A stretch of 64,000 nucleotides of DNA from an uncultured Acidobacteriota bacterium (GTDB taxonomy: Bacteria > Acidobacteriota > Thermoanaerobaculia > Gp7-AA8): NCBI GenBank assembly GCA_963822445.1, contig CAWGHO010000002.1, forward strand, positions 1,573,787 through 1,637,786, written 5' to 3'. Each line of letters opens with the position of its first letter. Within the stretch, counting starts at the first letter, position 1. Of the stretch, positions 42,001 through 48,000 are shown piece by piece. Position numbers: made by a program.

Positions 42001-45000
42001 GGTCGCGGAGATCCAGCGCGTGCGCAATACGCCCGTGCCGGTCGCGGGAGGCAGTCACGAAGAGCCCGCCGAGCTGCCGCCGCGGCCTACGACGAAGATT
42101 GCCGACAGCCTTCTACCTTCGCCGGCGGCGCCGACCTTTCTCAACGACGCGATGCTCGAGTTTCTGCATCCGTTGCGCGGGCAGAGCGGGGAGTTGCGCT
42201 ACGCGCCGGCCCTTCCCGGGTCGCGCGTCGTCCAGGGCGCACCGGGCGCGGCGGCGATCATCGAAGGGGGCGAGGTCGGCGATTTCGCGGCGCCGAGGGA
42301 ACCGGGCATCTACAACTTCTCGGTGGAGATGAACAAAGCCCGGCGCGACATCGAGAACATCAGCATCGTCACGCTGGTCCCCCGCTCGCAGAAGCGCGGC
42401 GGGCGAATCGGCAGGTATCAGCTCGGATCCTGGCCGTTCGAAGGGGGCGGCAAGCCTCGTTCGCCGCGTTATGCCGCGCCGGCGGGATTCATCGAAGTCA
42501 CGCCCGAAAATCAGAACTTTCAGGTCTCCGAGCACTTTCGCCTCAAGCAATTCCTGACCAAAGACCAGCACAACGTCTGGCCGAAGTACCTGCCCCTCGA
42601 TCCGCTGCTGGTGGACAAGCTCGAACTGACGATTCAGGAGTTGCAGAAGCAGGGCGTGCGGGTGGAGCACGTCCACGTCATGAGCGGGTTCCGTACGCCG
42701 CGGTACAACGCGGGCGGCGGCAACACATCCGGCCGGGCCAATCTCAGCCGTCACATGTACGGCGATGGCGCGGACGTGTACGTCGACAACAACCGCGACG
42801 GCCATCCCGACGACATCACCGGCGACGGGCGGGTGACGGTGCGGGACGCGGAGAAGTTCGCGGCCGCGGCCGAGAGGGTGGAGCGCAATCATCGATCGCT
42901 TGTCGGCGGCATCGGCATCTACGTTGCCTGCTGCGGGCACGGTCCTTTCACTCACATTGATGTTCGCGGCTCCCGCGCCCGTTGGCGGGGGAGCGGTAGC
43001 GGATGAACGAGGAGGTTCCGTGGTTGACGAAGTAACGAAGTGTCCCGAGTGTCATTCGCCGCGTCCGGATCTGACGACGACGTGTCCGACGTGCGGCGCG
43101 CCGCCGGCGCGCGAGGGCGATGCCCGACACGCTGAAAGCGAGGTCCGTACGCAGGACCTCGAGCCGTACATCACCCTTCGCTACATCGCGAAGCTCTTCA
43201 AAGTTCTCGCGGTGCTGATGGTGATCCTGATGATCGGCGAGATCATCGCCGGGCTGACGTCGGAAGGCGCGGCCTCGCTCGTGGAGCTGATCGGCGAGAT
43301 CACCCAGATGCTCGTTCTGGCAGGGTTGATGTGGGGCGGCGGCGATCTGACGCTGCTGCTGATCGATGCCGGCCACGATCTGCGCGTGGCCCGCATTCTC
43401 CTGGGCCGGATCAACGCCGAGCTGCACCGGCGGGGGATGCCGGAGCAGACGAAGTAAAGGTGTAGTGTGGGCCTCCGGCCTACCTCCGGGCGGTGGCCGA
43501 AGGTAGGCCGGGAGGCCCACACTACACGGGCTACATCAGATCCTCTTTCCGCCGCTGCATCATTTCCCCAAGGCTTCGCAGCTCATCGCGATCCATGGCC
43601 TTGCGCGCCCGCGGGAACATCTGCTTCTCTTCCTCTTCGGCGTGATGCTCGACGAGGTCCTTCAGCACCTTCGCCTTTGCCTTCAGCTCCTCGGGGGACG
43701 CGCCGTCGTTCATCTCCGGCATGACCATGTCCACCACGTGATGCTCCTGCACGGCCTCGAAGAACAGCTTCTTGTCTTCCTTCTTGCGGGCCGCCTCGCG
43801 GTACGCGGGATAGAAGATTTCTTCCTCGATGGTCGTGTGGACCTTCAGCTCTTTCTCGATCTGAGTCAGGAGCTTCTGGCGCCGCGCGCCCGTAGCGTTT
43901 TCGAATTGGCCGAGAAGCCCGCGCACTTTCTCGTGGTCCTGCTTGAGCAGCGCGATCGCGTCCGGTGATGCCTTCTTTTTTGAAGCCATGGAAGATCCTC
44001 CGATTACGGAAGATCAACAGTCAGGCCAACTACTGCGCGGCGACGATGGAGCGGTTCAGAATCTCGCGCAGGTCGCGGAATACGTTCTCCGGAGGGATGC
44101 CCAGCTCGCGGCAGCTCGCGGCGCGCTTCAGCAGATTCTCGGCGGTCTTCTCATCGAACATGCGCGAATCGACGGCGCGGTTGTTCAATTCGCAGAAGGC
44201 GACGAGCGACGCCAGGGCGACGCGTTTGTTCTGGCCGCGGAACGGCCGCGACATCAGCAGCGCGAAGACGAGCGCGGCGACCTTGTCAGGAAAGGCTGGA
44301 TAGGCTTCGCGGCCGAGGGTCGTGACCTGGGGGCGCTGGACGGCGCTGACCAGACCGAATTGCGAATCGACCACACCGGGCTGCGCGGAGTTTCCGCCGA
44401 ATTCGACGGCCACGGCCTTGTGGATGTCGACCAGGTCCTGGACGCTGAGGTAGCGGATCCCGCCGTCAGTCGGTGAGGCGCCGAAAAGCGTTGGGGTACT
44501 TCTTGACAGCGCGCTTGAAGGCGTTGGCGACGATGGGGTTGTTGAAACCGGGCGAGCCGCTGTCGGCGGCGGCGGGGCGGGCCGGCTTGCCTTTGCCGGC
44601 GGAGGCGTCGGTTTTGGCGGGCGCTGGGGCGCTTTTGGCTGCGGCGACGGTTTTGGCTTCGCTGCCTTTGCCGGCTTTGGCTGGGGCTTTTGCGGCGGTT
44701 TTGACGGGCGCTGGGGCTTTGCCGGGGCCGCCTTTTTGGCCGGCTGCGGTTTTTTCGCCGCTGCCACTGCCTTTTTTACCGCTTTCGCCGGTTTTGCCAC
44801 CGCTTTTGCCGCTTTGGCGGGCTTCGATGGCTTTGCCGCTGGTTTTCCCTGAGGCTTTGCTGGCTGTTTTTTTGGCTTTGTCTTTGTCGCCATGCGTCAT
44901 TTCAGTCCTCAGAGGCGACATGCTATCCGTCTTAAGTCGTTGAGTCAATGCGGCTTACGACCCAACACACTGAAATTGGAAATTAGCTGTCGAGGCTAAG

Positions 45001-48000
45001 TGACTGACGCACTTCGACTTAGAGAAATCGAAAGGTGCACTGAAACTTGTGCATCAAACTCCGTCGGCGTCTGGATTGGCCGCGGCTGAGGCCGCCGCGT
45101 CGGAGGTGCCTTCGTACAGCGGGACGGGGTCGACGGCCAGGAAGTCTTTCGCTTTCTGGGTGATGGTGAAGCTGTCGCCCGGCGCCACGGCCTCCAGGTA
45201 GCCCTTTCGAACCAGGGAGATCGCCGGAGCCTCACCGCCGCCCGCGGGATGCTTGATGGCCTTGATGGCCTCCAGGGTCATGGTCTCGCTGTTCGTCCGC
45301 CGGAACTCCTGGAGCACCCGGATCTCGTCAGAAGTGAAGCCGCCTGGAAGGATGATTGCCATGGCGGGTGATTCTAGTACGGCGCTGGCGCGCCTCGCAG
45401 TGGGCAGTGGGCAGTGGGCAGTACGCAGGGGGCGGGCCTGCCTACCGCCTACTGCCTACCGCCTACTGGTGGCGTGGGCGGCTGGCACACCGGACACCAG
45501 TACGTTCCCCGCACGTCCTTCCCCTGTTTCCGATACGCGATCGGCGTCCCGCACTTGCGGCAAGGCTTGCCGCCGCGGCTGAACACGTACGTCGGTTGCG
45601 ACGGGTCGAGGCTGAAGGTCGTGATGCGTTGGGTGGAGCGTTTCGCCACGTTCGCGAGCATCACCTTCCGCGCGGTTTTCAGCATCGTCTCGATCTGCTC
45701 GTCGGTCAGATCGCGAACCACCGTGAACGGATTGATCCGCGACATGAACAGCACCTCGGACTTGTACTCGTTGCCGATTCCCGAAACGACGCGTTGATTG
45801 AGGATCACGTCGGCGATCTCCGTGTCCGCGCGAGCGCGAATCCGCCGCCTGGCTTCGGCTGCATCGAACGTCTCGCCGAGGAAATCGGGGCCGATCTTGC
45901 GCAGGTCTTCCTGCCGATCGTCGTAAAACTCCGCGACCGGCACGTTGAACGCGACCGCCACCCAGCTGTCGGTCTCGATGGCGATGCGCATGTCACCGCG
46001 CGGCCGTCGCCAGCGCTCGCCCGGTTTGTAGATGTGCCAGGAGCCGTGCATGCGCATGTGCGTGCGCAGATGCAGGTCGCCGGAGAAGTGCATGAGCAGG
46101 TTCTTGCCCGCCGCTTCGACCGATTCGATGGTGCGGCCGGCGAGCGGCGCGTCTTCGTCGATCCGCGCGAGCTGCGGAAGCACGGTCTCGAACCGCGTGA
46201 TCACCCGTCCGGCCAGCGCGATGTTCAGCGTGTTCGCCGCGCGATGGATGGTGTCGCCTTCAGGCATGTCTCGCCTGGACCGCGCGCAGTTGGTACCCCA
46301 TCGCCGTCGGCGCGAATCCTTCTTCGACGAGGAACGGCGCGATCGCGTGGCGGCTCACCGGCTCGTCGTTCACTTCCGTGATCAGCATCGCCCGCCGTGG
46401 CCCGTCGGTGACGAGCGAGGCGAGCATTCGCGCAACGGCCCGCGCGACATGCGACCGTAGCGGCTCATCCTCGGGCAGAAAGACGATGAGTTGCTTCTCG
46501 CCGCGCGAGATGTAGCAGGCCATCAGCCCGTTCACGAGGATCACCTGCGCGCCGACGCTGCGCGACAGCGTCCACTTCGACTCCGGCCATTTCACGATCG
46601 CGCCGTACGGATTCGCGGGATCGGTCGCGGACAGCATCACCGCCTCCGTGTCCTCGGGTTCGTGGCGCAATGACCGCAGAAGATCGATGGCGCCGCCCGT
46701 GGCGAACTGCGTCGCACCGAGTCCGGCGACGAAATAACCGCGGCGGATCCGTCCCGCTTCTTCGAGCGCCCTCAGAATCGGATAAACCGCCGAAAAACCG
46801 CCGTAGATGTTCTCGAGCGCCGGCGCCTCGCGCGTCACCACGCCGTAGCGAGCGAGGAGCTGATGCGCGATCGCGTTTGCGCGCTGCGTGTCGTTGGTCG
46901 ATGCGGGCGGGACGAGCGACCAGCGCCCCTGCGTCGACGGCGGCGCAACGCGTCTCGAGCGAAATCCACTGCCGCGCGGTTGCGCGGCGTGCTCTTCTTC
47001 GCGGCCCCGCGAGTGAATGCGCGAAGCGCGTGGAAGGTGTCGTTGGTGACTGCGCCTTTCCAGACCAGATCCCAGACCGAGTTCACCAGCTCGTGCGGGA
47101 AACCACCCAGAGCCGCCTGGATCTGGTTGAAGAACGAGGCGCCGTGCGTGCGCAGATACTCGACGAATCGCCGACTCCTCGGCAGGCTGCGGTTGATGCA
47201 GCAGCGCCAGGTGATCGGTGAGATAGACGGCGATGCGGCCGTCGCGGTCGCCGAGAGGCTCGACGCCGACCCAGACGATCTCGCCGGCCGCGCTCAGGGT
47301 GTCGAGATCGGATGGCTTGTAGTTCTCGATGCGCGCCGCGAGGATCTCGCTCTCGAAAATCGACGCGGCCATGGGGAAGCCCTGCAGCGACTCGACGACT
47401 TCGAGAATCGCGTCGAGACCACGGCGCTCGCCGCATGATGCCCTGCCAGTTCGTGAAGAGCCGCGCCAGCACGCGGCTGATCGACAGGCTCCGCTTCCTT
47501 GCGCAGTTTCGCCAGCGAGCGGCGGCGGATCGATGCGAAGGACTTCGTTGTCGCACCACTCCCGTTGTGTGCCGCCGGGACGAAACTCGCCTTCGATGAA
47601 GCGACCGCGCTCGACGAACCGCTCCAGCGCGAGGGTGATGACGGCGATGCCGAGTCCGTAGCGGCGCGCGACGTCGTGCGGTGTGAACGGACCGTGCGTG
47701 CGGGCAAAGCGCAGAACGAGATCGCCGATCGGATCGGCAACTGGTTGCAGATAGCGCTCGGCGATTCCCGCCGGCATCGGTGTACCGAGTGCGTCGCGGT
47801 AGCGGGAAATGTCCTCGACGGCGATGAAGCGTTTCTCGCGGGCGATGGGGATCTCGACGATGCGGCGTTGTTTGAGGAGGTCCTTCAGGTGCGGCTGCAG
47901 GCGTCTCGCCTGCCACACGGGCTGCAATCTCCTCTTCGGTCAGATCCCCGAACCGCAGCAACAGATCGTGAATCGCATCCGCATTCCGCGCCTTTCGCTC

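Follow-up and report, generated by a model that had tools for sequence, protein, structure and literature searches.

How is a protein domain translated when no start codon stands near its first residue? This question is raised by a locus on the minus strand of a 64,000-nucleotide stretch of contig CAWGHO010000002.1 (hereafter the window), which belongs to an uncultured Acidobacteriota bacterium of the class Thermoanaerobaculia. The original prediction, made from this sequence, described there a 144-amino acid protein rich in Lys, Ala and Gly (frame A) whose TGA falls inside the frame of a Doc domain read at +1 (frame B), and its coordinates and composition check out. The answer that we consider probable, judging from the comparison of related loci, is that the locus is a phd-doc-derived pair of two nested genes, with a double start behind a single Shine-Dalgarno (SD) sequence, in which the Doc open reading frame (ORF) overprints the antitoxin-like ORF. 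The elements of the pair in the window are the following:

44900-44466, minus strand: ORF A, with its ATG at 44900-44898 and its TGA at 44468-44466, 144 amino acids
44546-44469, minus strand: conserved C-terminal peptide of ORF A (antitoxin-like module), FNNPIVANAFKRAVKKYPNAFRRLTD, with frame-A column entropy near 0
44893-44030, minus strand: ORF B, with its ATG at 44893-44891 and its TAG at 44032-44030, 287 amino acids comprising tail, linker and Doc-like domain
44893-44540, minus strand: ORF B residues 1-118, a histone H1-like tail, dual-coded with the N-terminal part of ORF A
44539-44459, minus strand: ORF B residues 119-145, a linker rich in Ser, Pro, Thr and Gly, the frame-B "shadow" of the ORF A peptide
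44458-44033, minus strand: ORF B residues 146-287, Doc/Fic-fold domain, as recognized by PF02661, 9vzc_A and Foldseek
44248-44222, minus strand: degenerate Doc motif RPFRGQNKR, with Arg at the catalytic His position by alignment to 9vzc_A
44910-44906, minus strand: SD sequence GAGGA, 5 nucleotides ahead of the ORF A start, ATG(A), and 12 ahead of the ORF B start, ATG(B)
44900-44891, minus strand: double start ATGACGCATG, with ATG(A) at 44900-44898 and ATG(B) at 44893-44891, 7 nucleotides apart

Frame B corresponds to frame A +1 on the same strand, and the overlap takes in all of ORF A except its first 7 nucleotides. ORF A is composed mainly of Ala (22%), Lys (18%) and Gly (15%), and the ORF B tail (residues 1-118) of Pro (29%), Ala (24%) and Lys (24%), with an isoelectric point (pI) of 12. 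The link that had been proposed between a His-less Doc fold and a Lys-rich, histone H1-like segment is found in ORF B itself, where such a tail and the Doc domain are parts of one frame. The G+C content at third codon positions (GC3) is 0.69 in frame A, 0.59 for the shared region read in frame B and 0.87 in the Doc part; neither upstream frame resembles a normal gene of the host genome, and to call the GC3 of frame A excellent was an overstatement. The two products would be told apart by the peptide STPTLFGASPTDGGIR across the junction and by tail peptides for B, and by YPNAFR, AIEAR and TSGK for A.

For comparison, one genome per species was scanned, which gave 55 orthologous loci from different Thermoanaerobaculia species (counts out of 56 include the window), and selection was counted pairwise over 23 phylogenetically independent nearest-neighbour pairs. 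All of these species, as well as two deeper relatives from metagenomes, show the two-frame arrangement of the window. One deeper relative, L059, was fetched with P0127, whose Doc domain is about 54% identical to that of the window, and has the same nested layout: it carries ATGAAGCATGGC, its frame A ends in AIKKYPDALRRLAD followed by the stop, and its frame B continues into the Doc domain. Because this relative keeps the layout, the nested arrangement is old. Each of the 55 complete loci, like L059 and L060, carries both ATGs; every locus has SD-N5-ATGAMGSATGGCGACAAAG at its 5' end, and the pattern GAGGA-N5-ATGAMGSATG is conserved. The 3' end of a GAGG or GGGG sequence lies 6 to 7 nucleotides ahead of ATG(A) in 54 of the 55 loci. 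Nearly all loci have a frame-B TGA two codons upstream of ATG(B), so that no earlier start is available to that frame. The frame-A codon overlapping ATG(B) is CAT in 41 loci and GAT in 14, and CAC or GAC in none, whereas in the Doc domain used for comparison CAC accounts for 48% of the His codons and GAC for 77% of the Asp codons. Two start codons a few nucleotides apart behind one SD sequence are thus a constant feature of the family, as in the nested genes of the Thermus type.

Both frames are kept free of stops. Frame B has none from ATG(B) to the stop of A in any of the 55 loci, and the third frame has about 1.1 on average. Frame A contains no codon ending in TG or TA (GTG for 0 of 275 Val and CTG for 0 of 88 Leu residues), and the Doc domain uses GTG for 35% of its Val and CTG for 42% of its Leu. 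When the A protein was re-coded with the codon usage of the Doc domain, frame B was open in only about 20% of the trials per locus; in the reverse test frame A was open in about 28% of the trials per locus, and when synonymous frame-B codons were permuted within the Lys-rich part frame A was open at about 0.27 per locus. The base after a T is C in 187 of 192 cases at A-phase 1 and in 256 of 263 at A-phase 2, whereas at A-phase 3 it is A or G in 103 of 157. In the Doc part, taken as a control, A or G comes next in 192 of the 725 cases of a T at B-phase 3, and the register of frame A has about one stop per locus. The phase-specific preference for C after T therefore means that TA and TG are excluded exactly where they would begin a codon of A or of B. 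Shuffling the codons of frame A gave P = 1.0 for the openness of frame B, an uninformative value because frame A has no xTG or xTA codons to begin with, and this absence is the signal itself. Both frames are maintained by selection across species, as expected of nested genes.

To judge from the substitution patterns, ORFs A and B fall into three zones under different selection. In the Lys-rich part the substitutions by A-phase were 276/221/159, that is B3 > B1 > B2; changes synonymous in B only reached 1.54 times the expectation, those synonymous in A only 0.78 times and those altering both proteins 0.82 times. Read in this way, frame B is coding and under purifying selection here. The third positions of frame A are 57% C, 33% A and 6% G, with AAA for 83% of the Lys codons and GCG for 5% of the Ala codons, and the Doc domain has AAG for 60% of its Lys and GCG for 52% of its Ala codons. 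The frame-A pattern would be sensible only with its third bases acting as frame-B second positions for Pro, Ala, Ser, Thr, Lys and Gln; codon-bias selection within A is ruled out as its cause because the C-terminal module of A varies freely at third positions. In the second zone the relation is reversed. Over the last 27 A codons the substitutions by A-phase were 55/42/105, changes synonymous in A only amounted to 1.97 times the expectation, and within the linker (ORF B residues 119-145) positions whose residues are fixed in frame A differ between loci when read in frame B. The frame-B synonymous-site rate is 0.091 in the linker against 0.27 in the Doc part. At this 3' end frame A is, by the same kind of evidence, coding. 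In the third zone, the Doc part, the substitutions by B-phase (B3/B1/B2) were 874/235/119. The 287-amino acid ORF had originally been dismissed because of its codon usage, a judgement reversed by its invariant ATG, by the absence of stops in 55 loci and by the selection on frame B.

The conservation of ORF A is confined to its ATG, its stop and its final 26 residues (F-x-N-P...KKYPNAFRRLTD and the stop), which are kept with synonymous changes; 5' of this module there is no residue conservation in frame A. The module reads F-[TS]-N-P-x-[IV]-x-x-A-F-[KR]-R-A-[VL]-K-K-Y-P-N-A-F-R-[RK]-L-T-D, and the end A[VIL]KKYPNAFR[RK]LTD plus a stop is found in 56 of 56 loci, the stop being TGA in 53 and TAA in 3. 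Within the module, variation sits at the third positions of frame A, and the same DNA read in frame B shows free variation. As frame A has neither a stop nor an internal ATG, GTG, TTG or CTG codon in the 55 loci, the C-terminal peptide can be reached only through ATG(A) or by a frameshift. An AlphaFold run on the fused A peptide and Doc domain with no alignment (predicted local distance difference test, pLDDT, 43) predicted for it, at low confidence, a pair of short helices kinked at Y-P. ORF A gave no match in Pfam, NCBIfam or PADLOC, and no folded DNA-binding domain (Phd/YefM, AbrB, ribbon-helix-helix and similar) was recognized in it, its N-terminal part being of low complexity. A search with the 43 C-terminal residues against a set of 5.8 billion proteins returned two fragments only and is uninformative on the wider distribution of the peptide.

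The Doc/Fic fold that had been proposed for the end of frame B is supported. Residues ~146-287 of ORF B match the Pfam Fic/DOC family PF02661, of the Fic/Doc (Fido) superfamily, above its curated threshold (32.5-33.3 bits against a cutoff of 24, E 1.6e-7), and TIGR01550 (DOC_P1) stays below threshold, with 22-24 bits against a cutoff of 38.65 over profile positions 2-93 of 122. PADLOC returned only weak Fic-like matches in the locus. A search of the PDB by sequence matched the Doc-family chain 9vzc_A over residues 3-99, with HCFYNANKR opposite RPFRGQNKR, and this alignment bears out the reported Arg in place of the catalytic His. An AlphaFold model of the domain built with 50 sequences (pLDDT 65) has the all-alpha Fic/Doc fold, its best Foldseek matches being P1 Doc (3DD7/3K33, template modelling score 0.56-0.70), followed by Fic proteins. 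At the motif position of HxFx(D/N)(A/G)NKR the family carries R, S, A, K and once H, and PF.G.N[RK]R is invariant; the His of an active Doc is thus replaced, in the window by Arg. A basic residue is kept at the position of Doc K73 (Gly in Fic proteins), GQNKR in the window and N[RK]R in relatives, as expected of Doc; the role of K73 has been described (PMC7180214). The domain is probably not an EF-Tu kinase, to judge from its motif, and it may still bind a phosphate-bearing ligand. The one His was seen in L036, from a Thermoanaerobaculia metagenome-assembled genome (DASWBH010000323.1), where the motif is SHPFHGGNRR, either a reversion or an ancestral remnant. Close homologues of the domain number 866, all from Thermoanaerobaculia or other Acidobacteriota and all with [R/S/A]PFRG(G/Q)N(R/K)R. 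An exhaustive HMMER search of 1.84 billion representatives delimited a small, well-separated family of about 20 clusters at 46% identity or more, beyond which come ordinary Doc proteins with HPFxDGNKR that begin with M(I)RYL at exactly the position of Doc residue 1.

In this family that start has been lost. The first Doc-aligned codon of the window is ATC at 44458 and, ATG(B) at 44893 aside, the nearest upstream in-frame ATG, GTG or TTG is the GTG at 44767, about 300 nucleotides away, which agrees with the earlier report of a Doc domain with no own start and no such codon for more than 150 nucleotides upstream. The codons at Doc residue 1 in the 56 loci are GTC (12), GTT (12), ATC (9), ACG (8), ATG (5), GTG (4), ACC (2), ATT (2), ACT (1) and TTC (1), so that a canonical start is present in only 9 and missing in 47; GTG makes up 4 of the 28 Val codons at this site, less than the 35% found elsewhere. 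No SD-like motif lies within 22 nucleotides upstream of the A stop in 55 of the 56 loci. The domain is therefore not a toxin cistron with its own start, as in type II toxin-antitoxin (TA) systems. The upstream same-strand ORF does end next to Doc, as in those systems, in all 56 loci, and the distance from the A stop to Doc residue 1 is 4, 7, 10 or 13 nucleotides, always 3n+1. Given this constant 3n+1 length, the spacer behaves as coding sequence of frame B.

Upstream of the double start, a promoter and a second conserved motif were located:

44948-44920, minus strand: sigma-70-type promoter, TTGACT (-35, 44948-44943), a 17-nucleotide spacer and TAGCAT (-10, 44925-44920)
44937-44931, minus strand: AcTTAac or CTTAAG-like motif in the promoter spacer, conserved in the 53-locus upstream alignment

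The promoter TTGACT-17-TAGCAT, already pointed out in an AT-rich gap, is the sole sigma-70-like site within 43900-45150, where shuffled sequence yields 0.1, and the intergenic region 44901-45053 has 47% G+C against 65% for the window. Its -35 and -10 elements are kept in most of the 53 aligned relatives: the consensus at 80% or more has the -35 TTGACTCA and the -10 TAnnAT in upper case, with one -10 position in lower case (TAc.AT). The spacer motif, a palindrome of the AcTTAac, CTTAAG or GTTAAC type, may be an operator. An inverted repeat GGGTCA...TGAC lies 5' of the -35 in many relatives and is likewise a candidate operator for autoregulation. The TTG at 44948 was considered as the start of a 160-amino acid ORF and rejected, as this TTG is part of the -35 hexamer itself.

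With these elements, the nested pair could work as follows. The conserved promoter would produce an mRNA with a short leader, one SD sequence and two AUGs 7 nucleotides apart. Initiation at AUG(A) would give the 144-amino acid basic protein, formed by a stop-free passenger N-terminal part and the conserved 26-residue two-helix peptide, and initiation at AUG(B) the 287-amino acid protein, with its H1-like Lys/Pro/Ala tail, its Ser/Pro/Thr linker and a Doc-fold domain devoid of the His. The spacing from the SD sequence (~6 nucleotides against ~13) favours AUG(A), and A would for this reason be expected above B, following the usual antitoxin-over-toxin logic. The part of Phd that neutralizes Doc is a C-terminal peptide of about 22 residues that forms two helices with a kink (Phd 52-73; PMC9207808), and by analogy of position and form the A peptide could bind the Doc domain in the manner of the Phd C-terminus. 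The polycationic tails would bring the pair to nucleic acid and the Doc domain would act as a non-catalytic binding module. A phd-doc-like bicistron is the likely ancestor, since ordinary Doc relatives begin at the xRYL position and A ends just before it; the start of the ancestral Doc would have decayed and its ORF would have been extended upstream to a new AUG, over the whole of the antitoxin-like ORF.

Several points weigh against this interpretation. The spacing of about 13 nucleotides between the SD sequence and AUG(B) is long for efficient initiation. Translation of both frames is deduced from sequence comparison, and for the N-terminal part of frame A, which lacks purifying selection at the residue level, the case is made by the conserved ATG(A) and its SD sequence and by the lack of stops and of codons for Cys, Trp and Tyr. 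The per-locus probabilities of an open frame are not independent, owing to shared ancestry, and their products indicate strength only. As to the structures, the Doc model is of only moderate confidence (pLDDT 65), and the run on the fused A peptide and Doc domain, at pLDDT 43, is uninformative on the predicted binding between the two.

A decidedly unlikely alternative is that ribosomes undergo programmed +1 recoding at GAY-TGA-Y, or hop a short distance there, and so produce an A::Doc fusion that replaces initiation at ATG(B) or adds to it. In its favour, Doc is invariably read at +1 to A, behind a 3n+1 spacer; 42 of 56 loci have TGA-C, which is a weak context for termination; and GAY precedes the stop in 55 of 56. 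As GAY also follows in the +1 frame after skipping the T (47 of 56), tRNA-Asp could re-pair 4 nucleotides downstream. However, frame relation, spacer and codon features all follow from frame B being one continuous ORF, and the Lys-rich part evolves as frame B and not as A. Recoding would need neither the invariant ATG(B) nor a frame B free of stops over 430 nucleotides. In 9 loci the sequence is TAA-C or TGA-A/G and re-pairing fails; in a simple +1 slip GAC could not re-pair with ACU, which is unlike a prfB-type site. Of known stimulators, an SD-like motif is absent in 55 of the 56 loci and RNAalifold found no conserved RNA structure after the A stop. The +1 recoding at GAC-TGA-C that had been offered as one explanation is thus compatible with the frame relation, yet it is unnecessary and lacks known stimulators.

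Distinctly improbable, too, is a single start at ATG(B) combined with a -1 frameshift into A within the A-rich Lys region, from which a protein of tail plus Doc and another of tail plus peptide would result. It would agree with a Lys-rich part that is selected in frame B only, and the window contains an A_AAA_AAA heptamer (CCA AAA AAA CAG, ~44870-44880, minus strand) that is slippery in principle. Yet the heptamer is not conserved in relatives, there is no conserved sequence upstream of the peptide, and such a shift requires neither a conserved ATG(A) with a well-spaced SD sequence nor a stop-free frame A. We regard as very unlikely that three products arise from one mRNA, namely A, B and an A::Doc fusion formed by a +4 hop of tRNA-Asp over GAY-TGA-GAY. 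Were it true, the fusion would place the antitoxin-like peptide directly before Doc, as in auto-inhibited class II Fic proteins, and the choice of initiation site and stop recoding would jointly tune inhibited and free pseudo-Doc.

Nor does a conventional bicistronic phd-doc-like pair fare well, with A as the antitoxin and Doc translated from its own first codon (ATC in the window) by coupled or non-canonical initiation. Both NCBI and ENA calls divide one relative in this manner, into a 135-amino acid gene and a 142-amino acid Fic gene, and nine loci do have ATG or GTG at the codon where ordinary Doc relatives start. The remaining 47 have GTC, GTT, ACN, ATC, ATT or TTC there, though, GTG is under-used, an SD sequence is missing and the spacers are 3n+1; the conservation of ATG(B), the open frame B and the selection on it would all go unexplained, and we hold this reading to be very improbable indeed. 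The same observations make unlikely the reinitiation at ATC that had been suggested (no canonical start in 47 of 56 loci, no SD-like motif in 55 of 56). Homologues organized as a conventional phd-doc pair with an ATG, which had been named as what would disprove the original prediction, do exist in the limited sense that 9 of the 56 loci have a canonical codon at that site, and its presence there looks incidental.

It is extremely unlikely that only the 287-amino acid frame-B protein is made and that the frame-A signals reflect a constraint on RNA or DNA, or chance in T-poor sequence. With just 5-12% T in the region, open frames are easily obtained, and the N-terminal part of frame A is free of constraint at the residue level. 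Chance would nevertheless have to account for the three-base periodic variation of the last 26 frame-A codons and for a stop at an exact position, TGA in some loci and TAA in others; moreover, the avoidance of TA and TG is phase-specific and gone in the third phase and in the Doc part, and no RNA structure was found. Rfam gave no match in the locus. Finally, a sequencing or assembly indel splitting a simple Lys-rich::Doc fusion gene, suggested by nothing beyond the look of a single sequence, has a negligible probability given the identical frame relation in 55 independent species assemblies and two metagenomic contigs, and the one-base indel proposed earlier is excluded by the same arrangement.

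The double start of the nested pair recalls the rnpA/rpmH genes of Thermus, which are nested and have two AUGs served by one SD sequence (Feltens et al. 2003, as summarized in PMC9841429); in 2022 this was called the sole reported ambiguous start site in bacteria, a few AUGUG cases of E. coli aside (PMC9841429). Both systems have nested same-strand genes in different frames, AUGs a few nucleotides apart, one SD sequence and two basic products. In Thermus the starts form AUGGAUG and the products are the RNase P protein and L34, whereas here the AUGs are 7 nucleotides apart, the origin is TA-like, the shared region encodes low-complexity tails and the pair is known from its sequence only. With P1 Phd-Doc (3K33, 3DD7) the locus has in common the Doc fold, the basic residue at the K73 position and an upstream same-strand ORF ending just before Doc, whose functional part would be a short C-terminal two-helix peptide. 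It differs in the loss of the catalytic His (R/S/A/K/H), in a Doc domain with neither a start nor a ribosome-binding site to itself, in an "antitoxin" that lacks a folded DNA-binding domain and in a Doc ORF that overprints the whole upstream ORF; moreover, instead of being mobile, the locus keeps its synteny and seems to occur throughout a bacterial class. In the type I loci of the hok/mok kind, a small membrane toxin is regulated through the leader ORF mok, and an RNA serves as antitoxin. The likeness lies in same-strand overlapping ORFs in a TA locus, with the translation of one governing the other, but here both ORFs encode conserved protein modules. AlgP and Hc1 are bacterial histone H1-like proteins rich in Lys, Ala and Pro; the ORF B tail resembles them in composition and extreme pI only, with no homology detected, and unlike them it is fused to a Doc fold and dual-coded. 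Fic proteins with degenerate motifs, such as Bep of Bartonella and those of Campylobacter fetus (PMC8401265, PMC5651007), also keep the FIC/Doc fold without the catalytic His, so this loss is not new in itself; they are effectors or components of TA networks, and neither an H1-like tail nor a nested partner gene has been reported for any of them. Our literature searches found neither this Doc family described, nor a Doc carrying an H1-like tail, nor a TA-derived pair with this kind of nesting.

Long same-strand dual coding conserved across a whole bacterial class is very rare. The locus would be a second natural case, one with clean comparative signatures (55 species, two frames, three selection zones). 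It also suggests a route to the domestication of TA systems, where the toxin ORF overprints the antitoxin gene, gains a polycationic tail and loses its catalytic His, and a built-in way of fixing the ratio of two partner proteins through the choice of start codon.

The genes around the pair follow the order Lhr, Fpg/Nei, orf102, A/B pair and hemerythrin:

46260-47927, minus strand: C-terminal part of an Lhr-like helicase, a neighbour in an order that recurs in about half of the related loci
45449-46267, minus strand: Fpg/Nei-type DNA glycosylase
45054-45362, minus strand: orf102, 102 amino acids, the conserved neighbour directly upstream
43531-43989, minus strand: hemerythrin HHE-domain protein

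In the 55 loci orf102 lies directly upstream in 53, Fpg/Nei is present in 28, Lhr in 29 and hemerythrin, downstream, in 21. Judged from this synteny, the locus is chromosomal and vertically inherited and not a mobile TA cassette; instead of the patchy distribution typical of type II systems, it occurs in 55 species with conserved neighbours. The orf102 product may be a third component or a regulator. It was considered as the true antitoxin or regulator and set aside, having no recognizable domain and no solved relative (Pfam, NCBIfam, PADLOC, PDB); its 631 homologues are all "hypothetical" and every match with a named organism comes from Thermoanaerobaculia or Acidobacteriota. A terminator-like hairpin TGCACAAGTTTCAGTGCA with a T-rich tail (45036-45053, minus strand) stands directly 3' of the orf102 stop and, because of it, orf102 and the nested pair are probably separate transcripts in spite of their fixed adjacency. 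The only Rfam match in the 64-kb window is a tRNA gene at 16986-17056 on the minus strand.

An exact look-up of the 287- and 144-amino acid products in the protein collection found neither of them. The family is mis-annotated in public data, since gene callers interpret the locus in at least three ways that exclude one another: they call A and a 142-amino acid Fic gene, or a single ORF B of 233-287 amino acids, or A together with a spurious antisense ORF while missing Doc altogether. Long frame-B ORFs are called by some pipelines (P0091, P0098, P0119, P0123, P0127), and frame-A ORFs are called in some assemblies. In the window, a 177-amino acid ORF runs antisense to the Doc domain (43943-44476, plus strand). 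On a 1.5-kb Logan contig whose orf102 is 100% identical to that of the window, a 180-amino acid minus-strand ORF has been called at the antisense position, with no Doc gene; such calls are probably annotation artefacts caused by the start-less Doc domain.

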